Positions 1-20,428 of a DNA stretch of 64,000 nt are shown here, piece after piece. Within the stretch, counting starts at the first letter, position 1; every line of letters starts with the position of its first letter. Source of the stretch: Escherichia coli (GTDB taxonomy: Bacteria > Pseudomonadota > Gammaproteobacteria > Enterobacterales > Enterobacteriaceae); the NCBI RefSeq assembly GCF_003334405.1, contig NZ_QOWM01000005.1. One strand, written 5' to 3'. The translations under genes and the position numbers were made by a program. The notes beneath the pieces are model-generated. The model had not been told where the DNA came from. It was given only the letters and a program-made list of their open reading frames with translations, and made no database searches.

Positions 1-1155
1 TAATTTTAAAATTAATTCACCGGCATCAGGCGAATGTATCAGCGTAGCTAAATGTGAACCACACTTGCAAGAATTGAAGTTGCTGTCCACTTTAAATTTA
101 AAGCGTCCGTTAGCAACCTCAGCATATCGGTAATTTTCATTCTCACTTTTCTCTTTTAGTTCGATCCTGAATTCATTATTGATATTTTCTAAGCAATATA
201 AGAATTTTTCTATCTCATATTCGTTAGTTTCAATCCAAAGAGCAATTGCAAAACCCTTTAAGGTAGATAAATGCTTATCCGATAAGATTTTAGACAGCTC
301 AATGAAAAAATCATGATGATCACAAGTCATAGCATCGAACTCGCCCTCAAGATAATCGGCATCCACGCCTAATTTTGCAGCATAAGCCTGAATGTTATTT
401 TTTATACACTCTATAACTTCTGCTTCTGGTGGTAAATTATTTTCTGAGGGTAGGAAAACATTTTTAATACAATCTGAATTTATTCCTCTGCTTTTAACTT
501 GATCGGCATCGTAAACAGATACTATGTTCAGGCCAGAGCTATCTTTATAATGCTCAGATACTTTTTGTATATTAGATTCACCTTGTAGATTATGTAAGTA
601 ACATGTAGAGTAAAGATGTGTGTTTTTTATTTTTAAGATATATTCAAGTACAAGTTTTGCAAAGTCATCCTCTATCAGGAAAATATTTTTCCTTTCAGGA
701 GCTAAACCCAGTGCATTGAAATATCTATAATTATATCCACAATTTGATATGGTATATTTTTTGCCTTTTTTAGCTAAGACTAATACTGAGTTTAAGCCTT
801 GAGGGCTGAGTATGTGTTCAGAGTGAGTAGCCATCAAAACATTTAATTTTTTAGTATCGATTGTGTAGGCTAAAAAATCCATGAAATTTTTCTGGCTTAC
901 CGGGCAAATAAAACTCTCTGGCTCTTCAATGAAGAGGATTGAATTTTTTTCCGTATAAATAAGTTTCCAGATTGCTATAAGTAACTTATGTTCTCCTTGC
1001 CCCATACTCTCTGACGTATAAACTATATTACTGTTAACCTCTTTAACCTCAAAGTATGGGAAAGTTAAATCATCAATAATTCCTTCTACCTCATTAACTT
1101 TTACATACTCATATTTCTTGCCTGTGATTTTCTGAACAAAAAAAAAGATTTTCAT
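1..1155 (-). CDS. Distal part of an OLD/ABC-type ATPase-nuclease (Walker B, H-loop, Toprim-like motifs); 3' end lies beyond the window start
   Basis: Minus-strand frame from ATG at 1155..1153 stays open to position 1 (absent from the ORF track, translated by hand: MKIFFFVQKITGKKYEYV...). Walker B-like ILFIEEPE (~917..940), H-loop-like LMATHSEH, then NIFLIEDDF (~663..690) and VYDAD (~500..517) resembling Toprim E and DxD motifs. Confidence 0.5.
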   Translation of the reverse strand, partial: MKIFFFVQKITGKKYEYVKVNEVEGIIDDLTFPYFEVKEVNSNIVYTSESMGQGEHKLLIAIWKLIYTEKNSILFIEEPESFICPVSQKNFMDFLAYTIDTKKLNVLMATHSEHILSPQGLNSVLVLAKKGKKYTISNCGYNYRYFNALGLAPERKNIFLIEDDFAKLVLEYILKIKNTHLYSTCYLHNLQGESNIQKVSEHYKDSSGLNIVSVYDADQVKSRGINSDCIKNVFLPSENNLPPEAEVIECIKNNIQAYAAKLGVDADYLEGEFDAMTCDHHDFFIELSKILSDKHLSTLKGFAIALWIETNEYEIEKFLYCLENINNEFRIELKEKSENENYRYAEVANGRFKFKVDSNFNSCKCGSHLATLIHSPDAGELILKL

Positions 1156-1603
1156 TTAGCAAATGATAAGAATTTGATGTATTGAACCATCCATTTTTGT
1201 TTGGCGATGTGTTTATTTCGTTTATGATTTTTAATGCCATTGATGAAGCATCAAAATATTCAACATTTCTTAGTCCATCACCCAAAGACGAAGTGAAAGT
1301 TTGTTTCTCTCCATTAATTATTATATCAATGGAGATATTATCAATATCAGAAGAGCTAAAAATCCCAACATTACATATATCTTTCGACAGTATACCATAG
1401 ATAAGTTTCAATAACGACGTTTTACCAATGCCATTTCTTCCACATATAGAGGTTAAAGCTGAGTTTATCGTAATATCAGCATCTTCAAAGAGTGGTACAT
1501 TCTTAATGGATAAACTACATATTTTAATATTAAACTTTTTCCTGTTTGCCACATGATTCCAATAATCAGCTAATTTTGCCATTTTAATTGTTTCTATTGA
1601 CAT
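1109..1603 (-). CDS. N-terminal fragment of the same P-loop ATPase (Walker A), in a different frame from the downstream part
   Basis: 164-aa ORF with Walker A ICGRNGIGKTSLL (~1418..1444); stop at 1111..1109 lies 47 nt inside the 1..1155 frame; the overlap contains an A9/T9 run at 1138..1146. Confidence 0.55.
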   Translation of the reverse strand: MSIETIKMAKLADYWNHVANRKKFNIKICSLSIKNVPLFEDADITINSALTSICGRNGIGKTSLLKLIYGILSKDICNVGIFSSSDIDNISIDIIINGEKQTFTSSLGDGLRNVEYFDASSMALKIINEINTSPNKNGWFNTSNSYHLLNENLFFCSENHRQEI

Positions 1604-2799
1604 GTAGTTACCCCCGCTAAAACAGAATCTGCATAATTGTTGACGACGCTTATCAGATTCTTTTCATTTTCATGATAAAGTGCTCTATGCGCAGTTTTTA
1701 GATTATTTTTTTTCATCGTATTGAACACATCTGCTTTACTGGGGTCACTCTTCAAGAAAAATAGAGATATTATAAAGTCTCTGATGAGTAAGGAAGTACC
1801 AGTCATTACTCTTGATACAGCCCTAAAATTAAATTCTTCCAATAACTCCTTTACTTCATCTTTATTTTCACAATAAAACAATCCATCCAACACTCCCTCT
1901 TCTCTGAAAACGAATCTACCACTTTCAAAGCGGTAAAAGAAATCACTAAGGCTATCGTCTAAATTATAATTCGATTTTAAAATGGTTGAAAAAAAATAAA
2001 GCCATGAAGTTAAAGTGGCTTTTGTTATATGAACCTTACTTTCTTCACTATCAATCTTTTTCTTTGCCTTACTTAATATTAAAATGGATTTTTTTACTAG
2101 TTCTATGATTGAATTATCAAAAGGCTCATCTTCACGAGCCCTGTCGTTTAATTGCTTTTCTGTATAAGAAGCAATCAATGAATCCTTCTCAAGCATGTAG
2201 CAAAGTTTAATGAAAAGATCATGGTATGCCATCCTTTGATTACTAAAGCCTAGAAAGTGCTTGTCAAGCCCACAATCCGACATATAATCTACGAGAGATT
2301 TTATCTGGTTTCTTAAATCGCCAACATAAGCATTTCTCTTTTCTGCTGAAGTTAATTTAAGAGATTCATTCAATCTGTTGAATAGTTCACCGGGCTCTCC
2401 CTGATTGTATTCAACAATCTCAAATACTCGAATGGCATACCGTTCAAATCTGTTTTTTATTCTTTGAGGTAATTTATCAAAAGTTAATCCATCTAATTCT
2501 TTGATATCATCATCAATAGGTTCAATTAATCCATTTATTTTGAATTTATTATACATGAAATCTCTTATGGCACTTAATCGTTGCTGTCCATCGAGAACTT
2601 CTTGAATATAGGAATCTTCATTTAAAATAACATGGACAGGTGGAACCTGCCACCCTCTTAGAATAGTATCGATTAAAAGTTTTTTCTTCGGAAGTTGCCA
2701 GACTTCCGCCCTCTGGAAATCGGGTTGGAGATCTAGACTTCCTTCATGAATCCTAGAAAATATAGTCCTCAAATCTGGATCTGTAGTATTTATTTTCAT
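1594..2799 (-). CDS. DUF262 (ParB/Srx-like, GmrS N-terminal type) domain protein; no DUF1524/HNH partner domain apparent
   Basis: 401-aa ORF with LQPDFQR...VW and LDGQQRLSAI motifs (~2580..2603) near the N-terminus; start overlaps the upstream gene stop (ATGA at 2796..2799); AT-rich. Confidence 0.7.
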   Translation of the reverse strand: MKINTTDPDLRTIFSRIHEGSLDLQPDFQRAEVWQLPKKKLLIDTILRGWQVPPVHVILNEDSYIQEVLDGQQRLSAIRDFMYNKFKINGLIEPIDDDIKELDGLTFDKLPQRIKNRFERYAIRVFEIVEYNQGEPGELFNRLNESLKLTSAEKRNAYVGDLRNQIKSLVDYMSDCGLDKHFLGFSNQRMAYHDLFIKLCYMLEKDSLIASYTEKQLNDRAREDEPFDNSIIELVKKSILILSKAKKKIDSEESKVHITKATLTSWLYFFSTILKSNYNLDDSLSDFFYRFESGRFVFREEGVLDGLFYCENKDEVKELLEEFNFRAVSRVMTGTSLLIRDFIISLFFLKSDPSKADVFNTMKKNNLKTAHRALYHENEKNLISVVNNYADSVLAGVTTCQ

Positions 2800-5700
2800 T
2801 TCATTAACTCCCAGAATGCTTTATCACGCATTTTCCTAACTTTTTTATTTCCATCTATATACAGGCTAAAATGCTTCTCAAGTTGTCGTATCTGGCCCAT
2901 TAAAGACTCCTGCTCACTTTTATCGTCAATGTTAAATACCGCCTTAATGTCCGAATTCCTAATCTCAGAAACTCGATGAATTACCCAAGTGAGAATATAA
3001 GAAGCATAATTATTCTCGCCTGTTTTAAAGTGAGTAATTTCTTGTGTTGATAGAATCGCCCCTACACCATATTCACGGCCTTCTTTAAGGATTTTACGCA
3101 AGCTGGCAAAATCCTGGCGCATAAAGTTATCGGCTTCATCAACCAGAATCATTTTGGTTAACTGGCGATAATCACCTCGCACCGTCGGTTTCCCACGCTT
3201 TTGCATCTGCGCATAAAAAAGATCCAGTGTCAGTGCAACTACCAGGTTTTGAATCTCTGATGGATAACCAGCGAGTTCGATAACTGTGACTCCATCAACC
3301 AGATCGTACAAACTGGTCATCTTCTCTGGATCCGTTTCAAAAATCTGGAAACCAGCCAGATTATAAAGTGCAGCATATAATGAATCTTCGTCGACCTTCT
3401 CTTGTGCCAGGTACTGCTGCCACACATCTTCAATAGTCGGTGCTACACGATTCCATGTTGATCGATCATGAGGCACTATTCCTGCTAAGTCATAGCACTC
3501 CATTATTAACGTAACCAGCTTCATGCGTTGTTTTACGCCAAGGTTATACGCTTTGCCCATCGTTTCAGCGAATGCCATGGCCGTATGCCTCGGTAACATG
3601 GGCATATCACCAAATAACGATAACGGATTGTAAGGTAACAACGATAGCTGATACCTCTTAGCTCCCGTAGCTTCAAGAAACGCATCATCCACATAGTCGG
3701 ATTTATAGTCGAAGATCAACAAGCCAATCGGTTTACCGTCAACGTTGTAGGACTGATTGCGCATCAGTTGCGTAACCAGCGATTTAGTAAACTGGGTTTT
3801 CCCGGTGCCCATTGTTCCAATAATGCCGGTATTAGTATTCATGAACTTAGCGGTGTTGGTTGGTTCCCAGTACAATGGATTCTGACGCACAGCATCATGA
3901 CCAAACAAGATCTGTAATGGTGTATTGCGGACATTACTGGGGGTTAGTGCCGATGCTTCAGGTTGTGGAAGCTCCAGCGCAGAAATGGGCGGCGGCTCAG
4001 TTGTTGTTGCTACCTGTACTGGGTGTGAAGAATTGACATCACACTCTGGTTTGAGCAGATATTTTTCCGGCACCCGATAGCGTTCAGCTAGTGGAGGTTG
4101 ATCACCTTGTGCTGCAATTAACGATGGAAGCAATGAATAGGGGATTTCGATCTGTAGAATATTCTCTGCCGTTTCTTTATAAGAGAGATCAAAACAGGTT
4201 CCGCTGTCTACATGAGCTACCACAAAGCCTTCTGCATAATCAGCAAGCTCACCTAACTGATAGTCGCCAGTGAGCCACCATTCACGTCGTTCCAGCAGAG
4301 GGGATAGCTTGTCGTTATCCAGTACACCATACAGACGCAACTTCTCTACCTGCATTAATACTTGGCGGATAAAAAGTGCCCGGTATAGTTGTGATGCTAG
4401 AGTTTTCGGCCCAAGAATATCTTGCTGTAAATAGCGTTTTAGCTCGCGGGCCTGCTGCCCCGCATGGTTGTAATCGGGGCGAGCTCCTGTTTTTACTTCA
4501 AGTGGTAACAGATACAGGTTGTTATCTTTGAAACCGACAAAGAGCACATCGTCAGAGATCGCTCCTTTCTGATAACCCTGTAAATGGCGCGATAAATCGC
4601 TTTCTTTCATTCTCAGCCCGACGTTGCCGGACACGCGGATCATCTCAGCTACTGACAGTGGAATCCAGCAAATATCTGACTGGAGCAGCATAGACTGTAC
4701 GAATTTGTATGCACCGATAATGCCGTGTTTTTCTTTGCGCTCCTTTTCATTTGAACGCAACATTTTTAACAGCCACTCACCGTTAAAGGCATTAAATTCA
4801 GCAAGTAGTTGCTGGCTATCAACGGTGGATTGTCCTGTTTGAAGGAGACGCAGGAACAACTCAACCTGTTTTGTGACAGTTACGGCGTCATAACCAGCAC
4901 AACTGGTGTACTGGTCAGAGTAATGAATTAGTACGACATCTTTTTGACTAGTAAAGAAATCGAGTGTGACCTTAGGGTCGATAATTGTGGTCCAGAGAGA
5001 GCTATCATAAGAGCGATTCAGCAGTTGCTTAAAGTTACCGCTCACAGCCAGACTAATTCCCTGACCGTGATACTGGCTGTTGCTCTGCCGTGCCGGTTGC
5101 CACAGACAGCCTAACAAGCGGGCGAGACGCAGGGCGCAAGACGATTCAGTATCGACATTACGCAGACCAAACGCGGTAAAGTAAGCATCGCCTTGTGTTT
5201 CAGCCCCTTCGCCTGCAATCAAGCCATGACATAAAACCCCGCTGGCAGCATCCTCAATGCGAATTTGGCGGCAATCAACCGGTGCGGTGTTGGTGAAAAA
5301 TGCGAGATGGGCGTAAGCCAGTTGATCGCTTTCCGGTGGCAGGATAAATTTGCTGAATGTTAAGCGACTGCGAAGCAGATCGATCAACATATCGGCTTCA
5401 GAACGCCACGCACCGCTGTTCAGACCAAGATCATTTTTAAGTTGTTCATAGCTGCCGCTTTCGGCAAAGCGGTCAAAGGCATTGGGTAGCAGACGTTCGT
5501 CATAGCAGTTTACGTGTATCGAAATTGCGTTATCTTTTTCCTGCTTAAAATAATCTACCAGTCCCAGGAATAGCTCTCTGGCTTCTCCCATATTAATAGC
5601 ATTAATAACCAGGGCATTATTTCCTGCACTCTGGAACAGCCGAGAATAGGCATCTGTAAATTCGTTTAGCTTGTCTTTCACCAGACGCTTAACATATTCG

Positions 5701-7880
5701 TGGCTCATCTGGCGCTGGGGAACAATATCTATCCAGAAGCGGTTTTCTACCATCGGTTGTAACTGTGCGTATTCATGTTCGCTATGATACACAAATGGCA
5801 TTAGGCCAGAGACGACCAGACGATCTAGAGTAATCTCTGGTAATGAAGCGAAGGAAGCTGATGTGGGGTATCCGGGCTCGGCGATAATAGTTTCAGCTAG
5901 CTGTAAATGATAAGCCATTACCAATGGGTGCAGAGGCGAGAGACGTTCATAATCGTCGCCGCGGCAAATCCCCAGATGTAACAGACGTTTTTCCTGGATG
6001 GTTAATGCTCTGCTTAGACTGATTTGCTGTAATGCCTGTTCAAAAGTAGCGATCATGTGACTGACTAATACACGATATTCTGCTGACCATGACACCAGAC
6101 TCGGCAGGGTATTTCGACGTTGATAGTAAACGAACAATTGGTGGTACGCATTATGGAGGTCGGGATAGCTCGCCAGAAGCTCATCCAGTGCAAACTCACT
6201 ACCATTACTGCCAGTGCTGAGCAGATTACGCTCGATCAGGGCGTACTCTTGCATAAGCAACTGCTGGCGAACACCAACCACATTATGTTCGATATTGTCC
6301 AGGATGACGCGACCTTTCAACTTGTTCCAGGTTGCATTCCCTTCTTCTTTAAAGAGTTTATTGAAACGACCCTGATCAAAAAGCAGAGGCAGTGTTAATC
6401 CTTCCTCTGCTCCTGGACCTTCGATGTTAAACAGTAAACGGGAGTCACCTGAAATCAAGGTAAATTTGATCAGCTCACTTTGATTCGCCAGCGTTTCAAA
6501 ATTAACGAGTGCATAATGGCGGCAATCAACATCATCACTTTCTTCATCAAGTAAACAGGTCTTGTCGCCGAACTCTGCAATACGTAACTCATTATCTTCC
6601 AGTTGCAGAGTTAATTGACCTTTACCAGGTTCAATACGATAACAATGCTGGATTTCATTAAGCCAGAATTGCCCTTGTTCAACTAACAGCAGGCGAAACT
6701 TGTACTCTTCTGCTGAGTTATTGCGGTTAATGATTTCGAGGCTAAAGAAGCAGGGCCGACCATCAAAAGGCACTGATGCCAGTATCTTAGAGTTTCTCCC
6801 CCCGAGCCGGCTAGTACGCCAGAATCGTTCTTTCTGTAACGGACGATGATGAGCAATTTTTACCTGATTGTCCTGAAGGTCGTTACCCTGGAAGATAAAC
6901 TCCAGCTCAACTTGTGACTGCCCCGGTAGAACCTGAACCAGGACACTGATATCTCGTTTACCTGCTTTACTGGTGCTTTTGGCTCTTTGCCAGACCTCAC
7001 CGTTTTCAGCAGTAATGTTTTCCAACACCAGTTTCTGTTCACTGTTTTGTGCTTTTTCATTCAGGTAGACGGAGAAATCAAGCTCACGCCAATCGTCATT
7101 GTCAACGAAATGCTCCTGAATGAATTTTGCACTAAATTCAGTTAGTACATTCTCCAGTTGCCCGCTGTAGCGTTCAACACTGTCCTCTATCTGGCGATAT
7201 AACTTTTGGTTTTCATTGAGCCGGGCGCGCAACTGCTTATCACTAAAATTCAGCAGGTTATTATCGTTGAATAACTTTAGCTCTGAGAAATCCAGATTGC
7301 CGTCGTCCAGCAGACGGTATAACGATGAAAATCCAAAAACCGTAGCGCCTTCATCCAATATTGTTGTCAACTGATCGCCCAGCAAACAGCGGGATACTTG
7401 AGAACGGGCGCTGTCCGTTGTGATTAACTTTTCGAGCTGGTGACGGAAGGTTTCTGGATGCCAGATAGCATCCGGTGCAGCGACATCTTTGGTACTATTG
7501 AGTAAGGTATCCAGCATGCTGTTGTGGATAATCAACAACGCTGTCTGGGCAAAAATGCCATTGCGGCCAGAAACCTGATCGCGTAAATGAGAAATATAGT
7601 TTTCTGTGAATGCAGGGGTAGTGGTGCCGTGCAGTACCGGAATAAGCTGGATATTATTACATTGGACGTAGGTAAGAAATTGCTCCGGTGCAATTTCTAG
7701 TTTATTTCCATTTGCTAAAGAGTCGAAAGCCTTCCAGAGCTTTAAGGCGTTATCCGGATCGGGAGATTTAAACTGGTAGCGCTCACCAGGCTGGATGATG
7801 CTGCTAACCCATTCAATGAAGGTTTCTGCCAGATAGGTTTCATACTGTTTTACGGACATATACGGCGTCTCCACTGTCAC
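2796..7880 (-). CDS. Large (1694 aa) island protein with C-terminal HerA/FtsK-type P-loop ATPase; possibly DptH/DndH-like
   Basis: Walker A GTMGTGKT (~3795..3818), Walker B ILVDEAD (~3129..3143), then REYGVGAILSTQ (~3028..3080) resembling the HerA/FtsK arginine-finger and TQ motif. Candidate PD-(D/E)xK motif VLFVGFKD...LPLEVK (~4491..4540). Start could instead be the Met at 7859. Confidence 0.65.
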   Translation of the reverse strand: MTVETPYMSVKQYETYLAETFIEWVSSIIQPGERYQFKSPDPDNALKLWKAFDSLANGNKLEIAPEQFLTYVQCNNIQLIPVLHGTTTPAFTENYISHLRDQVSGRNGIFAQTALLIIHNSMLDTLLNSTKDVAAPDAIWHPETFRHQLEKLITTDSARSQVSRCLLGDQLTTILDEGATVFGFSSLYRLLDDGNLDFSELKLFNDNNLLNFSDKQLRARLNENQKLYRQIEDSVERYSGQLENVLTEFSAKFIQEHFVDNDDWRELDFSVYLNEKAQNSEQKLVLENITAENGEVWQRAKSTSKAGKRDISVLVQVLPGQSQVELEFIFQGNDLQDNQVKIAHHRPLQKERFWRTSRLGGRNSKILASVPFDGRPCFFSLEIINRNNSAEEYKFRLLLVEQGQFWLNEIQHCYRIEPGKGQLTLQLEDNELRIAEFGDKTCLLDEESDDVDCRHYALVNFETLANQSELIKFTLISGDSRLLFNIEGPGAEEGLTLPLLFDQGRFNKLFKEEGNATWNKLKGRVILDNIEHNVVGVRQQLLMQEYALIERNLLSTGSNGSEFALDELLASYPDLHNAYHQLFVYYQRRNTLPSLVSWSAEYRVLVSHMIATFEQALQQISLSRALTIQEKRLLHLGICRGDDYERLSPLHPLVMAYHLQLAETIIAEPGYPTSASFASLPEITLDRLVVSGLMPFVYHSEHEYAQLQPMVENRFWIDIVPQRQMSHEYVKRLVKDKLNEFTDAYSRLFQSAGNNALVINAINMGEARELFLGLVDYFKQEKDNAISIHVNCYDERLLPNAFDRFAESGSYEQLKNDLGLNSGAWRSEADMLIDLLRSRLTFSKFILPPESDQLAYAHLAFFTNTAPVDCRQIRIEDAASGVLCHGLIAGEGAETQGDAYFTAFGLRNVDTESSCALRLARLLGCLWQPARQSNSQYHGQGISLAVSGNFKQLLNRSYDSSLWTTIIDPKVTLDFFTSQKDVVLIHYSDQYTSCAGYDAVTVTKQVELFLRLLQTGQSTVDSQQLLAEFNAFNGEWLLKMLRSNEKERKEKHGIIGAYKFVQSMLLQSDICWIPLSVAEMIRVSGNVGLRMKESDLSRHLQGYQKGAISDDVLFVGFKDNNLYLLPLEVKTGARPDYNHAGQQARELKRYLQQDILGPKTLASQLYRALFIRQVLMQVEKLRLYGVLDNDKLSPLLERREWWLTGDYQLGELADYAEGFVVAHVDSGTCFDLSYKETAENILQIEIPYSLLPSLIAAQGDQPPLAERYRVPEKYLLKPECDVNSSHPVQVATTTEPPPISALELPQPEASALTPSNVRNTPLQILFGHDAVRQNPLYWEPTNTAKFMNTNTGIIGTMGTGKTQFTKSLVTQLMRNQSYNVDGKPIGLLIFDYKSDYVDDAFLEATGAKRYQLSLLPYNPLSLFGDMPMLPRHTAMAFAETMGKAYNLGVKQRMKLVTLIMECYDLAGIVPHDRSTWNRVAPTIEDVWQQYLAQEKVDEDSLYAALYNLAGFQIFETDPEKMTSLYDLVDGVTVIELAGYPSEIQNLVVALTLDLFYAQMQKRGKPTVRGDYRQLTKMILVDEADNFMRQDFASLRKILKEGREYGVGAILSTQEITHFKTGENNYASYILTWVIHRVSEIRNSDIKAVFNIDDKSEQESLMGQIRQLEKHFSLYIDGNKKVRKMRDKAFWELMK

Positions 7881-9165
7881 TCATTCTCTCCACATTTCCC
7901 ATGCGTTCATAAAACGCAACCAGCATTTGTGTAGACTGGTTATCCAGATAAAATCCGCGTTGCTCAAAACCACGTAGCAGCTCATGCAGACGGAGTTTTT
8001 TGTTTTTACCCACGGTAAGGTTAGTTAGTAGCAGTAGTCGATCCTGGTTCAGTACCAGCACTTTCCCCGCTCGGCCACGAACCTGAATGAAGTCAGTGCA
8101 AATCTGGCTTTCCAGCTCGTTGATGTATTTGCGATTTACCGCTGCTCGCTCGGTTTTCTTACCCTGAAACTGTTCAACGGCAACAGATAACAGCTGTTTA
8201 AAGGCATCTTCCAGGTTTGTAGCACGATCGCGTTCAGGAAGGTCTCGCTCCTCCTTACTAATGAACTTCTGTATATAATTATTGAGTTCATTTAGTACTC
8301 GATTCGATGTATCTGAATAACCTAAGCAATCTTGATATACCTGCCAAAGAGGGCGCTTTTCCTCACCTTTTACTTGTAATACCTCTAATGCAGAGAGTAC
8401 GGGGAATAATTTTTCACTTTGGCGGGCAAACCACTTATAGCCGAAGAGCTTTATTTTATCTCGTTCGGAGCTAGCTTTTTCAGTATCGAGGATAAAGAAC
8501 AATGATTTACTCTGCGGCTCGCCGTCTTGCCAGTTGTCCAGATTGAGCGCCAGTTGTGCGCACCAACTAAAGGCATACAAACGTAGAGTATTGGTCAGCT
8601 CCTGCAAAAGATATTGTGGGTGCTCTGCCAGAAACGCCAAATCAGACTGAAAACACGTTACCAGATAGGGTAAATAAGGTTGTTCTTTTGCAAATGGCCC
8701 CTCACCCAGTCGGATTAATTTTTTATTGAGCTTATTCAGCATCTCTTTTTCAATAAAATTCAACTTATCTTGTATCGGGTTATTAAGGCTAAAATCTCTC
8801 ATCAAATTGGCAAACAGTGTTCCAAGGCGTTTGTCGGCAGTCGAGCCTGCACTTATCTTTTCACCATCAAACTGAGCGTGGAACAGCAAGAACAGCGGGG
8901 AGACACGAAAAATATCCTGACTGGAAAAATACATCCGTTCCAGCACGGACAAGAACGCAGGTTCATCGATCAATATTTGCAGATGAGTTTTACAATCCTC
9001 GCGAAACTGCTCGAGACTGTATGTATCGATTTTATACTTCACGGCATAGCTCAGTACTAAACCTGTGACGATTTGCCAGTCAATATTGTTATTCTTATTA
9101 CGTATTGGAAGGTAGCTATCCAGCTGGTTATTACTAACTTTTAAATTTGTTGCAATGGGATACAT
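7840..9165 (-). CDS. 441-aa island protein with no recognisable motif; possibly DptG/DndG-like
   Basis: ORF sits 4 nt downstream of the 549-aa gene and overlaps the 1694-aa gene start by 41 nt; AT-rich codon usage. Confidence 0.6.
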   Translation of the reverse strand: MYPIATNLKVSNNQLDSYLPIRNKNNNIDWQIVTGLVLSYAVKYKIDTYSLEQFREDCKTHLQILIDEPAFLSVLERMYFSSQDIFRVSPLFLLFHAQFDGEKISAGSTADKRLGTLFANLMRDFSLNNPIQDKLNFIEKEMLNKLNKKLIRLGEGPFAKEQPYLPYLVTCFQSDLAFLAEHPQYLLQELTNTLRLYAFSWCAQLALNLDNWQDGEPQSKSLFFILDTEKASSERDKIKLFGYKWFARQSEKLFPVLSALEVLQVKGEEKRPLWQVYQDCLGYSDTSNRVLNELNNYIQKFISKEERDLPERDRATNLEDAFKQLLSVAVEQFQGKKTERAAVNRKYINELESQICTDFIQVRGRAGKVLVLNQDRLLLLTNLTVGKNKKLRLHELLRGFEQRGFYLDNQSTQMLVAFYERMGNVERMSDSGDAVYVRKTV

Positions 9166-9169
9166 GATG

Positions 9170-10819
9170 TTATCCCTCCATGCCGCTGATAGTAATCATG
9201 TCATCGTCCGCTCTTGCACTATAGACCCGCTTTAGGCCATCATAAAACTTGATTTCGCTGCTGGATTTTGCCTTTTCTGCGATTAGTTCAACGATTTCGT
9301 CCAGTAAGACAATCGCACTTTTATCATACTTATTAGGGCGATAGCCATTATTTAGTTTGCTCAATAGCTCAAATAAATTAAGACCGATCCGAATCGGATC
9401 TAGCGGATCTTGTCCTACTTTTAAATAGATATCGAAACAAGTTGTATGGGCTGTATTTTTCTTGAGAATTGAATCCCAGTCCGGTTTCAGCGCAACAGGT
9501 GCTGTGATTTTAATCCCACCAAATTCGCCTAAAAAGAACTCTTCTTTTTGGGTACTCAGTTCAGGTGCTTTACGGTTTGCGTAACGCTGAATACCAGCGA
9601 TAAGCTCGAAAGAGTAAAAGCGGTTTAGTGTTCTTTTTTGTTCCGGATCTGCGGTATAGTTTTTATGCAGATGCCAAATCTCTGAATAACGCTCAAAGAG
9701 CGCTTCTTTAAAGAATACAGAGAACCTTTTGTGATAGTTATTCCCTAAAGATTCATGTTGTAGTAGCCAGAAAAGTCTAATTAATGAAGCTGCGTCACCA
9801 GGCTTAACACATTGACGATCAAACGTAAGATGTAATTTCGCAAGTGTACTCAGAAAATCATCCAGTTCGGGATCAACTAATCCAAGCTCATAGCGCAAAA
9901 TAAATTGATCAATCTCGTATGTATGCAATCTGGCAGGATCAAAATCAGAAACCTTTTTAATTAGATCATTCTCTGCACCATTAAACAGATTATCAAACAG
10001 GTACCCAGGCCCTGTCAGCAGGTGGTGTAAAAAATCCAATAAGGTTCTTGTGGTAACAAATTGATCTTTTATTAATCGGGCTTTAAATAGCTGTGTTATT
10101 AAAACATTCTGAACACCGGGCATGCACAGTAGTTTAAAGTTAGCAACGGTTTTTAAATCATGTCCTATTGATTCATCACGTTGATAAATTGTGTAAAACA
10201 GGTTTTTGTCGTCATTCCCCGTTAATTGATTCATTAATTTTTTGATAAAAGGGGAGTATTCCCGCTCTTCGTCAAACTCGAACTTTGGATAATGTTCGAA
10301 ATCAAAAAATATACAATTTTCGTTGCGGTAAGGACGCTGGCCTTCCTGTTGCGCTGACAAGAATGAGTCAATAGCAGCACGGATAGCCATATGGGACTCA
10401 GAACCTTCTCTGGCAAAATTGGCTAGCATCCCGGTGTTGATACCGATGAGGAGCGGGTATGATTGCGAATGATGATTTTCAAATAAATCATTCAGTGCAT
10501 CGATAGCCGATTGTTGAGGCGCAAAGCTATGTGTCGCATCCAGATGGAAACTAAACTTCTGTTGATATTGTGGATCTGACTTACAGCGGGTTAAAATTTC
10601 GGATTTCCCGTCTCCACTACTTCCGCATAGAAAAATGATCTCACCGGGAGTAGCTGTATCCAGATAACGCTGTAACTCTTCTTCAATCTCTTGTTTAACA
10701 AAGAGTTGTTCTTTTAGCTCATCGAACACATCCTTTTGCCGATGAGTTTCTGTGGTTACGGAAAACGAAGATGACTTCGCAAGTACACCTAACGCTTTAC
10801 GTAATGTGATCGCGCTCAT
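9170..10819 (-). CDS. 549-aa P-loop NTPase, first gene of the island operon; possibly DptF/DndF-like
   Basis: N-terminal P-loop FLCGSSGDGKSE (~10597..10630); first ORF downstream of the 209-bp gap after the integrase. Confidence 0.6.
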   Translation of the reverse strand: MSAITLRKALGVLAKSSSFSVTTETHRQKDVFDELKEQLFVKQEIEEELQRYLDTATPGEIIFLCGSSGDGKSEILTRCKSDPQYQQKFSFHLDATHSFAPQQSAIDALNDLFENHHSQSYPLLIGINTGMLANFAREGSESHMAIRAAIDSFLSAQQEGQRPYRNENCIFFDFEHYPKFEFDEEREYSPFIKKLMNQLTGNDDKNLFYTIYQRDESIGHDLKTVANFKLLCMPGVQNVLITQLFKARLIKDQFVTTRTLLDFLHHLLTGPGYLFDNLFNGAENDLIKKVSDFDPARLHTYEIDQFILRYELGLVDPELDDFLSTLAKLHLTFDRQCVKPGDAASLIRLFWLLQHESLGNNYHKRFSVFFKEALFERYSEIWHLHKNYTADPEQKRTLNRFYSFELIAGIQRYANRKAPELSTQKEEFFLGEFGGIKITAPVALKPDWDSILKKNTAHTTCFDIYLKVGQDPLDPIRIGLNLFELLSKLNNGYRPNKYDKSAIVLLDEIVELIAEKAKSSSEIKFYDGLKRVYSARADDDMITISGMEG

Positions 10820-11028
10820 AACTTCATGTTCTCTAAAGAAAGAATATCCTTATTCTATACAAGCTAACAATTGAGCACCATATGCCTTTTTCTCCAGGTA
10901 CGTTCAATACTCTGCAGAACTACCTGAAACCAATGCGCGGACAGCTACCATCATGAAATTGTTGCAACTTTGACCAACGAGCCTACTTAACAAAGTGTGA
11001 CGGTAGGCTCTATTTTTGTTACACAGCT
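10820..11028 (-). promoter_or_regulatory. Intergenic region between integrase 3' end and first operon gene; likely holds the operon promoter
   Basis: 209-bp non-coding AT-rich gap; I did not identify a convincing -35/-10 pair or a terminator hairpin. Confidence 0.3.
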
Positions 11029-12297
11029 TTAGCGCTTTAACGACGCAAAAATTTTGGCAAAATCAAACGGGCTAATCACTTTCTCGCGATTTACATCTAG
11101 AAAATCCGCCCACCACTGCAACATCAATCTTCTCTCATCCAAATGTTCTGCCTTATGGATATAAGCCGCTCGAACGGAGTTACGTTCCATATGGCTCATC
11201 TGACGCTCTACCGCATCCCTCGACCACAGCCCTGACTCAATCAGCGAGCTACATGCCATAGTCCTGAAACCATGCCCACAAACCTCTACCCTAGTGTCAT
11301 AACCCATAACGCGCAGCGCCTTGTTCACCGTGTTTTCACTCATCGGTTTACGCGGATCATGATCGCCAATGAAAACAAAATCGCGCTCGCCACTAAGCTT
11401 GTGAACCTGTTTGAGGATTGCCAGAGCCTGATGAGACAATGGCACCAGATGAGGTGTGCGCATTTTAGAACCACGTTGAGAGTGCTTCACTCCTTCGATA
11501 GCTTCTCGTTCTGCCGGTATCGTCCACATTGCCGTATCGAAATCGATCTCAGACCAGCGGGCAAAGCGCAATTCACTGGAACGAATGAAGATTAATAAGG
11601 TTAGCTCAACAGCCAGGCGGGTCAAAGGGCGTCCCGTGTAACCGTCAATTCGGTGGAGCAGTTCAGGTAGACGTTTCAGCTCAAGTGCAGGGCGATGGAC
11701 ACGGTTACTGGAAGCAACTGCGCCAGCCATCTCTTGAGCCGGGTTGTAATCAATCAGCCCACTTTGTACCGCATAGCGCATGATTGCTGTGGTTCTCTGC
11801 TGAAGGCGAGAAGCAACTTCAAAGCGGCCTGTCGCTTCCACGATTTTTATGGGTGCAAGCAGGTCACGAGTTTTTAGCTCTTCGATACTTCGTCTGCCAA
11901 TTGCCGAGAACAAATTGTCCTCTAAGCTCTTCAATACCCTTCGGCTGTGTTCTTCGGACCATTTCTTATTAGTAGCGTGCCATTCTCTGGCAACTGACTC
12001 GAAGGTAATAGCCTCTTTCGCCTGTTCTTCTTTCACAGCACGTTTATGCTCGCGAGGGTCGATTCCAGCAGCAACAAGTCTCCTAGCCTCTTCTCTTTTT
12101 TGACGGGCATCAGCCAGTGAAGTTTCAGGGTAAACACCGAAAGCCATCAGGTGTTGCTTGCCACCGAAGCGAAAGCGGAACCGCCAGTATTTTGAGCCGT
12201 TGGGATGAATCAGCAAAAACATGCCATCCCCATCGACTAGGGTGTACTCCTTTTCCTGCGGTTTCGCAGAACGTACTTTAGTATCTGTCAGAGCCAT
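11029..12297 (-). CDS. intB: P4-type tyrosine integrase (IntB-like), apparently intact
   Basis: 422-aa ORF next to a tRNA 3' end; the C-terminal region (around ...EVCGHGFRTMACSSLIESGLWSRDAVERQMSHMERNSVRAAYIHKAEH) has tyrosine-recombinase-like R/H..R/Y spacing; position matches P4-like tRNA-associated integrases. Confidence 0.85.
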   Translation of the reverse strand: MALTDTKVRSAKPQEKEYTLVDGDGMFLLIHPNGSKYWRFRFRFGGKQHLMAFGVYPETSLADARQKREEARRLVAAGIDPREHKRAVKEEQAKEAITFESVAREWHATNKKWSEEHSRRVLKSLEDNLFSAIGRRSIEELKTRDLLAPIKIVEATGRFEVASRLQQRTTAIMRYAVQSGLIDYNPAQEMAGAVASSNRVHRPALELKRLPELLHRIDGYTGRPLTRLAVELTLLIFIRSSELRFARWSEIDFDTAMWTIPAEREAIEGVKHSQRGSKMRTPHLVPLSHQALAILKQVHKLSGERDFVFIGDHDPRKPMSENTVNKALRVMGYDTRVEVCGHGFRTMACSSLIESGLWSRDAVERQMSHMERNSVRAAYIHKAEHLDERRLMLQWWADFLDVNREKVISPFDFAKIFASLKR

Positions 12298-12496
12298 AAA
12301 AGTTCTCCTTCCATGTGCCGCTGTGAGTATACAACCATTATCGAACCAGCATATATACTCGGTTCTATACTCACAAGCGACTTGATGTGGGTTGACTCAG
12401 ATTGACTTCTGTTGAAAGGAAAATCGCGGAAGGCCTTGTATGACGGGGATTTCAGGCATAAAAAAAGACCTCAGTTGAGGTCCATTTACATGCTTT

Positions 12497-12581
12497 TGGT
12501 GCCGAAGGCCGGACTCGAACCGGCACGTATTTCTACGGTTGATTTTGAATCAACTGCGTCTACCGATTTCGCCACTTCGGC
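12497..12581 (-). tRNA. leuX: tRNA-Leu (leuX)
   Basis: Plus strand reads TGGTGCCGAAGGCCGGACTCGAACCGGCACG...GCCACTTCGGC, the reverse complement of an 85-nt tRNA-Leu with CCA end at the low coordinate facing the integrase. Confidence 0.9.
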
Positions 12582-17849: not shown

Positions 17850-18848
17850 ATGCGCAATCACAGAATTTCTTTACAGGATATCGCTACGCTGGCTGGCGTA
17901 ACAAAAATGACCGTGAGTCGTTATATCCGCTCGCCGAAAAAGGTGGCAAAGGAAACAGGCGAGCGCATCGCCAAAATTATGGAAGAGATCAATTATATCC
18001 CTAATCGCGCTCCCGGCATGTTGTTGAATGCACAAAGTTATACCCTCGGTATCTTGATTCCGTCATTTCAAAATCAACTCTTCGCTGACATTCTCGCGGG
18101 AATAGAATCCGTCACCTCTGAGCATAATTATCAGACCCTTATTGCTAATTACAATTACGATCGCGATTCCGAAGAAGAGTCGGTGATTAACCTGCTCTCT
18201 TATAACATTGACGGGATTATACTTTCGGAAAAATATCACACCATCAGGACGGTGAAATTTCTGCGTTCAGCCACCATTCCGGTCGTGGAATTGATGGATG
18301 TACAGGGAGAACGGCTGGATATGGAGGTCGGTTTTGATAATCGGCAGGCCGCTTTTGACATGGTGTGTACCATGCTGGAGAAGCGAGTCAGGCACAAAAT
18401 TCTGTATCTCGGTTCCAAAGATGACACCCGCGATGAACAGCGTTATCAGGGGTATTGCGATGCGATGATGCTGCATAATCTTTCCCCATTACGCATGAAT
18501 CCACGCGCCATCTCATCCATTCATTTAGGAATGCAGTTAATGCGTGATGCCCTTAGCGCAAACCCGGATTTAGACGGTGTATTTTGCACCAATGACGATA
18601 TTGCGATGGGTGCGCTTCTGCTGTGCCGCGAGCGAAACCTCGCCGTGCCAGAACAAATTTCCATTGCGGGTTTTCATGGGCTGGAGATTGGCAGGCAAAT
18701 GATCCCAAGCCTCGCCAGCGTAATTACTCCCCGTTTTGATATTGGTCGGATGGCCGCCCAAATGTTGCTGAGCAAAATTAAAAATAACGATCACAACCAC
18801 AACACTGTTGACCTCGGGTATCAGATTTATCACGGCAACACGCTTTAG
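17850..18848 (+). CDS. idnR: LacI-family regulator of idonate catabolism
   Basis: N-terminal [24 protein letters not shown]; start taken at the internal Met (MRNHRISLQ). Confidence 0.88.
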
Positions 18849-18925
18849 GTTATTTTCTCTTCATTACACGTATTCTCTTTGCCGGACGTTGCCTATACTC
18901 CAGGCAGGAAACTGGAGGATATCTC

Positions 18926-20428
18926 ATGAGCGAACCCCTGTTAATTGCCCGCACGCCGGACACAGAACTATTTTTACTGCCGGGAATGGCTAACCGTCAC
19001 GGGCTGATTACTGGCGCAACGGGGACGGGTAAAACTGTCACGCTGCAAAAACTGGCGGAGTCTCTATCGGAAATCGGTGTTCCGGTGTTTATGGCCGATG
19101 TGAAAGGCGATCTGACCGGCATCGCGCAGGCAGGAACGGCGTCGGAAAAACTGCTCGCAAGGCTTAAAAATATCGGCGTAAATGACTGGCAACCGCATGC
19201 TAATCCGGTGGTGGTGTGGGATATCTTTGGCGAGAAGGGCCATCCGGTGCGGGCGACGGTTTCGGATCTGGGGCCGCTGTTGCTGGCGCGGCTGTTGAAT
19301 CTCAACGATGTGCAATCTGGCGTGCTGAATATCATTTTCCGCATTGCTGACGATCAGGGGCTGTTACTGCTCGACTTTAAAGATCTGCGGGCAATTACCC
19401 AGTACATCGGCGATAACGCCAAATCCTTCCAGAATCAGTACGGTAATATCAGTAGCGCATCGGTTGGTGCCATCCAGCGCGGGCTGTTATCGCTGGAACA
19501 GCAAGGCGCAGCACACTTCTTTGGTGAGCCGATGCTGGATATCAAAGACTGGATGCGTACCGATGCCAACGGTAAAGGCGTTATCAATATCCTCAGCGCC
19601 GAGAAGCTTTATCAGATGCCGAAACTGTACGCCGCCAGCCTGCTGTGGATGCTTTCAGAGTTGTATGAACAATTGCCTGAAGCGGGCGATCTGGAGAAAC
19701 CAAAACTGGTGTTTTTCTTCGACGAAGCACATCTGCTGTTTAACGATGCGCCACAGGTACTGCTGGATAAGATTGAGCAGGTGATAAGGCTTATTCGCTC
19801 AAAAGGCGTGGGCGTCTGGTTCGTTTCGCAAAACCCGTCAGATATTCCGGATAATGTGCTCGGGCAGCTAGGTAATCGCGTTCAACACGCTTTGCGGGCT
19901 TTTACGCCCAAAGATCAGAAAGCAGTAAAAGCTGCGGCGCAAACCATGCGGGCCAATCCGGCGTTTGATACCGAAAAGGCAATCCAGGAACTGGGGACCG
20001 GTGAGGCGTTAATCTCGTTTCTCGATGCGAAAGGAAGTCCTTCAGTGGTGGAACGGGCGATGGTTATCGCGCCTTGTTCGCGAATGGGGCCGGTGACGGA
20101 AGATGAGCGTAATGGCTTGATTAATCACTCTCCGGTGTATGGCAAATATGAGGATGAGGTGGACCGGGAATCCGCCTATGAGATGTTGCAAAAAGGCTTT
20201 CAGGCCAGTACCGAGCAGCAAAATAATCCCCCCGCGAAAGGGAAAGAGGTAGCGGTGGATGACGGCATTCTTGGTGGATTGAAGGATATTTTGTTTGGCA
20301 CTACTGGACCACGCGGCGGGAAGAAAGATGGTGTGGTGCAAACAATGGCAAAAAGCGCCGCCCGCCAGGTGACGAATCAGATTGTGCGCGGGATGTTGGG
20401 GAGTTTGCTGGGGGGGAGAAGAAGGTAA
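18926..20428 (+). CDS. yjgR: DUF853-family P-loop NTPase
   Basis: 500-aa ORF with Walker A GATGTGKT; core gene in K-12 gene order. Confidence 0.9.

Follow-up and report, generated by a model that had tools for sequence, protein, structure and literature searches.

We analyzed a 64,000-nucleotide stretch of Escherichia coli DNA (NCBI RefSeq assembly GCF_003334405.1, contig NZ_QOWM01000005.1), referred to here as the window, and found that the large gene at positions 2796..7880 on its minus strand very probably encodes DptH (DndH), the large subunit of the DndFGH restriction complex in the phosphorothioate (PT) defense island of E. coli B7A-type strains. The product matched the NCBIfam equivalog model for DptH, TIGR03237, at 1210.7 bits, where the curated cutoff is 620.65 (residues 11 to 1255 covered), and the PADLOC DndH model PDLC02685 with 2832 bits (residues 8 to 1692 of 1694). 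When translated from its ATG, the product was identical to E. coli B7A WP_000114123.1 at 1687 of 1687 residues, and its last 375 residues (aa 1320 to 1694) were 100% identical to Protein Data Bank (PDB) chain 7es4_A, which was deposited as DptH and comprises published residues 1313 to 1687. The gene is thus not new, its product being the same B7A DndH that has been partly crystallized, reconstituted, and computationally dissected. A first-pass annotation made from the letters alone had described a 1694-aa protein combining a C-terminal translocase-type ATPase with a candidate nuclease motif. Its observations were confirmed in part and its interpretation is supported, while the textbook DptH/DndH identity of the protein escaped it. 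The coding sequence is as follows.

2796..7859, minus strand: dptH (dndH) coding sequence from the RefSeq ATG, identified by NCBIfam TIGR03237, PADLOC DndH, and identity to B7A WP_000114123.1.

The length of 1694 residues given in the first-pass annotation corresponds to an existing open reading frame (ORF) of 1694 codons, 2796..7880 (minus), with a GTG start. The start used by RefSeq and the family models lies 7 codons later, at an ATG at 7859, and gives a protein of 1687 aa. Both candidate starts overlap the upstream gene dptG, the GTG at 7880 by 41 nucleotides (nt) and the ATG at 7859 by 20 nt, and a GGAG precedes both of them. Since RefSeq chose the ATG, a GGAG sits 9 nt upstream of it, and the match to the PADLOC DndH model starts with ORF residue 8, the ATG is favored and the dptH product is probably 1687 aa long, as far as the sequence indicates. 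DptH residues are numbered here by the ORF; subtracting 7 gives the RefSeq and published numbering.

The C-terminal part of DptH was located by its motifs, by its identity to the solved structure, and by family profiles, yielding the following features.

2799..3923, minus strand: HerA/FtsK-clade ATPase domain, aa 1320 to 1694, from identity to 7es4_A and family profile matches.
3795..3818, minus strand: Walker A motif GTMGTGKT, aa 1355 to 1362, with K1361, from the located string and conservation.
3129..3149, minus strand: Walker B motif ILVDEAD, aa 1578 to 1584, with D1581 and E1582, from the located string and conservation.
3042..3077, minus strand: REYGVGAILSTQ, aa 1602 to 1613, with the Arg finger R1602 and the sensor-1 residue Q1613, from conservation, with roles according to PMC10853773.

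The Walker A string stood exactly where it had been reported. The Walker B string is also present, although it ends at 3149 rather than 3143, and the third quoted motif, REYGVGAILSTQ, was found at aa 1602 to 1613. The ATPase is indeed C-terminal, but it extends over some 375 residues, not the roughly 300 initially estimated. In 114 homologues, Walker A residues G1355, G1358, G1360, K1361, and T1362 and Walker B residues D1581 and E1582 were invariant, R1602 was conserved at 100%, and Q1613 was conserved at 99%. The Walker A pattern turned up in 3% of shuffled DptH sequences.

DndH is placed in the HerA/FtsK clade on account of an Arg finger that lies just upstream of core strand 4 and of a Gln that serves as sensor-1 at the end of that strand (PMC10853773, section 21(vii)). 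Pfam searches of the C-terminal domain gave DUF87/HerA (E = 3.8e-7), with weaker matches to FtsK and TrwB, and the NCBIfam and PADLOC searches gave matches to HerA, CedB, and VirB4. A family profile built from 70 homologues matched archaeal HerA (4d2i, E = 3.6e-16) over nearly the entire domain, defense-system HerA proteins (1e-9 to 1e-13), and FtsK (7e-6). The HerA/FtsK/VirB4-type assignment of the first-pass annotation therefore agrees with Pfam, NCBIfam, PADLOC, the family profile, and the identity to 7es4. An earlier description of DndH, reported in PMC10853773, had instead used the label RecA-like, which would make this domain one of the recombinase type rather than a HerA/FtsK translocase; the ASCE (additional strand, catalytic E) core is common to all of these ATPases. 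Against that label, no RecA chain was among the matches of the family profile at E <= 1, Pfam returned DUF87/HerA, FtsK, and TrwB, and the Arg finger and sensor-1 Gln are invariant at the positions that PMC10853773 treats as diagnostic of the HerA/FtsK clade. We rejected the RecA-like class for the DndH ATPase and regard it as extremely unlikely. The DptH C terminus is a HerA/FtsK-clade ATPase that retains all of its catalytic residues. The core genome of the same window carries another protein with a domain of this kind: yjgR, at 18000..19500 (plus) and some 10 kb beyond the island on its right side, is annotated as a helicase HerA-like C-terminal domain-containing protein. YjgR is an unrelated housekeeping HerA-clade paralogue, and the DndH family profile matched its solved structure weakly (E = 0.053).

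The candidate nuclease motif lies upstream of the ATPase and comprises the features below.

4281..4670, minus strand: PD-(D/E)xK restriction-endonuclease-fold core, aa 1071 to 1200, from predicted structure and conservation.
4644..4646, minus strand: E1079 (RefSeq E1072), the helix Glu of the putative nuclease site, 96% conserved in 160 homologues and located in helix 1077-1086 of the model.
4548..4553, minus strand: D1110-D1111 (RefSeq D1103/D1104), at the N terminus of strand VLFVGFK, 98% and 99% conserved.
4491..4499, minus strand: E1128-V-K1130 (RefSeq E1121 and K1123), the ExK of the predicted nuclease motif, from conservation and strand 1121-1132 of the model.

Both strings on which the nuclease call had been based are present, VLFVGFKD at aa 1112 to 1119 (4524..4547) and LPLEVK at aa 1125 to 1130 (4491..4508). 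The spacer between them is the five residues NNLYL rather than ten, and the pair spans 4491..4547 rather than ending at 4540. No nuclease family was matched when aa 496 to 1694 were searched with Pfam, and a sequence search of aa 561 to 1320 against PDB chains returned none even at E <= 10. The restriction endonuclease (REase) region was therefore examined by conservation and structure. The motif pattern alone means nothing, because D-x(5-30)-[DE]xK occurs 9 times in DptH compared with 7.7 ± 2.5 times in shuffled sequences, and we rejected a regular-expression match as evidence in itself.

A word-indexed homologue search gave only fragments of <= 761 aa, and an exhaustive search of representatives with aa 940 to 1320 was used in its place. 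This search retrieved 299 cluster representatives; almost all of them have a length of about 1700 aa and match at the same position. Across 160 homologous segments, conservation of 96 to 100% was found for E1079 (96%), R1082, D1110 (98%), D1111 (99%), G1116, P1126, E1128 (100%), V1129 (99%), K1130 (99%), and Q1143. E1079 and D1111 were also invariant in alignment A2. D1119, the Asp that ends VLFVGFKD and that had been proposed as part of the motif, was conserved in only 23% of the segments. The nuclease site is taken as real because these residues are conserved across homologues, not because of the regular expression.

An AlphaFold model of aa 955 to 1300 had a predicted local distance difference test score (pLDDT) of 85.2 and a predicted template modeling score (pTM) of 0.86. 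In this model, strand 1071-1076 leads into helix 1077-1086, which carries E1079, and after a loop D1110 and D1111 precede strand 1112-1118. D1119 falls in the hairpin turn that follows, strand 1121-1132 bears E1128-x-K1130, and helix 1137-1155 contains Q1143. The alpha-beta-beta-beta-alpha-beta core fold of PD-(D/E)xK nucleases is thus present in the predicted structure of DptH, and the model is consistent with the restriction endonuclease fold that the first-pass annotation had proposed to check by structure prediction. E1079, D1110-D1111, E1128-x-K1130, and Q1143 form, in this model, the canonical PD-(D/E)xK site arrangement. The PD-(D/E)xK call therefore holds for the LPLEVK ExK, which is backed by conservation and the AlphaFold model, and fails for the named Asp. 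We rejected D1119 as the catalytic Asp, given its 23% conservation and its place in a hairpin turn; the near-invariant D1110 and D1111 ahead of strand VLFVGFK are the catalytic Asp candidates suggested by the alignment. The mutagenesis proposed in the first-pass annotation would have been aimed at D1119, which is not conserved, in place of the candidates D1110/D1111 (RefSeq D1103/D1104). A literature search for DndH point mutants in REase or Walker residues gave no DndH paper with residue-level data.

The REase-like domain might instead be a structural or DNA-binding relic, with nicking supplied by another subunit. Such a relic would fit the weak fold-search scores, the lack of any sequence-level family match in the region, and the adjacent methyltransferase-like domain, which has clearly lost its motifs and indicates that dead enzyme domains are tolerated in DptH. 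It would also fit residue 1139 (4464..4466, minus), in the helix after the ExK strand, which is His in the B7A-type protein and Lys in 88% of homologues. However, E1079, D1110, D1111, E1128, K1130, and Q1143 retain their 96 to 100% conservation in about 160 homologues that are only 30 to 69% identical overall, which is the pattern expected of an active site and not of a relic. In addition, all key catalytic residues are retained according to PMC10853773, and family searches of DptF and DptG showed no other nuclease motif. A relic is therefore very unlikely, and we read the region as a PD-(D/E)xK nuclease domain.

The N-terminal region of roughly 1100 residues had been described as lacking any recognized motif. 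Pfam likewise gave no match at all in the first 1100 residues, yet the region models confidently and matched known folds, namely an SF2 (superfamily 2)-helicase lobe, beta-sandwiches, and a methyltransferase fold. The domains upstream of the REase core, with approximate boundaries, are listed below.

7470..7859, minus strand: N-terminal alpha/beta domain, about aa 8 to 137, resembling the second lobe of SF2/SWI2-SNF2 proteins and without Walker motifs.
7038..7457, minus strand: helical region, about aa 142 to 281, with helices only in the model.
6420..7028, minus strand: two beta-sandwich domains, about aa 285 to 487.
5001..6413, minus strand: target-recognition domain(s) (TRD) and a methyltransferase-like Rossmann domain that lacks catalytic motifs, about aa 490 to 960.

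The region at about aa 142 to 281 has been assigned as a helical bundle with a fast-evolving helix-turn-helix (HTH) domain (PMC10853773, section 21(ii)). The methyltransferase motif (D/N/S)PP(Y/F/W) is absent from DptH and from aa 500 to 1000 of 102 full-length homologues. DptH shows the multidomain core of its family, with an SF2-lobe-like domain, a putative HTH, two beta-sandwiches, TRD, an inactive methyltransferase with a nested TRD, REase, and HerA/FtsK. The REase and ATPase architecture and the N-terminal domains of DndH are already in print: section 21 of PMC10853773 describes eight domains, an inactive SWI2/SNF2 C-lobe, HTH, two beta-sandwiches, TRD, an inactive adenine methyltransferase with a nested TRD, REase, and HerA/FtsK. 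The present domain map independently reproduces that architecture. Little of this biology is new; the added value lies in the residue-level correction and in the independent reproduction of the domain map. The analysis also serves as a positive control, since reading the raw sequence recovered the published REase and HerA/FtsK architecture.

Compared with other systems, DptH of Salmonella enterica serovar Cerro 87 (dptFGH/dndFGHI operon) belongs to the same family, with the same operon order and the same PT context, GpsAAC/GpsTTC (PMC11662687), and Salmonella fragments are about 80% identical to DptH in the REase region. The Rossmann methyltransferase fold gives DptH a resemblance to the Type IIG and Type ISP enzymes, such as BpuSI and LlaBIII. 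Nevertheless, DptH is not a member of that class, because it has no active methyltransferase: the methyltransferase motifs are missing, and DndBCDE take care of modification instead. Whereas the Type IIG/Type ISP enzymes use an SF2 helicase as their motor, the putative motor of DptH is the C-terminal HerA/FtsK-clade domain, and the domain order differs as well. HerA-Sir2, HerA-DUF4297, and HerA-NurA, like DptH, combine a HerA-clade ATPase having the same Walker, Arg-finger, and sensor motifs with an effector, which may be a nuclease. Their HerA is a hexameric protein of its own that partners with this effector, whereas DptH unites ATPase and nuclease in a single chain of 1687 aa, reported to be present in one copy per complex.

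The surroundings of dptH are those of the B7A island, whose flanking dptG, dptF, DUF262 gene, integrase, and tRNA-Leu are all the same. The features on the upstream side are as follows.

7840..9165, minus strand: dptG (dndG), NCBIfam TIGR03236 (1.1e-89), PADLOC DndG (8e-193), identical to the B7A protein.
9170..10819, minus strand: dptF (dndF), NCBIfam TIGR03238 (1.9e-131), PADLOC DndF (3e-235), identical to the B7A protein.
11029..12297, minus strand: P4-type tyrosine integrase of the island, NCBIfam NF007246 (1.7e-83), annotated by RefSeq as a tyrosine recombinase.
12497..12581, minus strand: tRNA-Leu (CAA), the island insertion site, from ARAGORN and RefSeq annotation.

The genes dptF, dptG, and dptH form an operon in this order on one strand, with dptG and dptF directly upstream of dptH and a 20-nt overlap between dptG and dptH. 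The PADLOC models for DndF, DndG, and DndH matched their proteins over the full length. Each of DptF, DptG, DptH, and the DUF262 protein encoded downstream has the same sequence as its B7A counterpart. The match of the integrase to NF007246, at 280.6 bits, is under the curated cutoff of 434 for that model. Positions 1 to 12500 of the window were 99.98% identical to the E. coli B7A chromosome, as well as to 12 further complete E. coli genomes. Over these 12.5 kb the window strain and B7A differ by 2 mismatches and a 1-base indel, which falls outside dptH, in the OLD-like ATPase gene downstream. According to the B7A annotation, the modification genes dndB-C-D-E stop roughly 90 bp short of the left edge of the window. 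At its opposite end, the island is delimited by the P4-type integrase and tRNA-Leu (CAA). The remainder of the window outside the island is ordinary E. coli core genome.

The B7A DndF, DndG, and DndH proteins assemble into a 2:2:1 complex that binds, translocates on, and nicks DNA, and crystal structures are available for B7A DndG and DndH(1313-1687) (PMC10470545). PT represses the ATPase of DndFGH, and nicking is coupled to translocation; the PT context is GpsAAC/GpsTTC (PMC11662687). The literature further describes DndBCDE as the writers of the PT marks at GpsAAC/GpsTTC and the movement of DndFGH along DNA as driven by ATP. In our reading, the HerA/FtsK domain would act as the motor and the REase domain as the nickase, while recognition of DNA, and possibly of sequence, may fall to the N-terminal domains and to the dead methyltransferase/TRD module. 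Because PT represses the DndFGH ATPase, translocation is reported to stall on self DNA and translocation-coupled nicking to be prevented there, whereas unmarked phage or plasmid DNA is shredded.

Three points weigh against this PT-coupled mechanism. One DndH per complex is at odds with the usual hexameric HerA/FtsK ring. An EcoSal review points out that some restriction persisted when dndF, dndG, or dndH was deleted singly. Finally, dndBCDE lie beyond the window edge, and their presumed presence in this strain follows from near-identical genomes.

A different model comes from PMC10853773, which argues that many DndFGH modules work independently of PT. Under this model, DndFGH would counter invaders on its own, without functional coupling to PT modification. 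There the trigger is nucleotide sensing via the DndF kinase-like domain together with invader macromolecules, and the HerA/FtsK domain "captures" DNA undergoing segregation, conjugation, or packaging. That paper reports that the module often occurs without DndABCDE and that the HerA/FtsK domains of various DndH proteins come from six clades, and the many DNA-binding-type domains of our N-terminal model fit multi-input recognition. On the other hand, dndBCDE are directly adjacent in the identical B7A island, and the literature on B7A and Salmonella documents PT-dependent self-protection and toxicity of DndFGH upon PT loss. We consider the decoupled model improbable for this system, although the two models are not mutually exclusive, and we favor the PT-coupled one.

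On its 3' side, dptH is directly followed by a DUF262 gene encoding 401 aa (window 1594..2799, minus), with 4 nt shared between its ATG and the dptH stop. The protein matched PADLOC NsnA (3e-33) and PD-T4-2_A (5.5e-18); it had no NCBIfam match, and none of the solved structures matched it in sequence. In Salmonella, dndH is followed by dndI, which combines DUF262 with a DUF1524 HNH domain; in the window, the shorter DUF262 protein comes first and an OLD-like ABC ATPase gene second. The DUF262 gene thus holds the position of Salmonella Cerro 87 dndI without the HNH part. The OLD-like gene (window 1..1603, minus), which is 536 aa in its B7A version and annotated there as an "ATP-dependent nuclease," matched PADLOC HEC-04 (2e-27) and NsnB (2.8e-14) as well as Pfam AAA_15/AAA_21. 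In the window, it contains an A9 run at about 1138..1146 where B7A has A8, leaving only 164 codons (1109..1603) in frame. The extra A may reflect either a true frameshift or an error in sequencing the homopolymer. We tentatively raise the possibility, itself rather doubtful, that the DUF262 and OLD-like ATPase pair serves the E. coli Dnd island as an uncharacterized PT-sensing accessory arm, occupying the DndI position with the nuclease in trans.

Elsewhere in the window, a 572-codon ORF (31931..33649, minus) occupies an islet of 34% GC that separates argF from tabA and is surrounded by core genome. PADLOC and NCBIfam searches with this ORF gave no match at E <= 0.01; its B7A counterpart is annotated by RefSeq as a 555-aa hypothetical protein.

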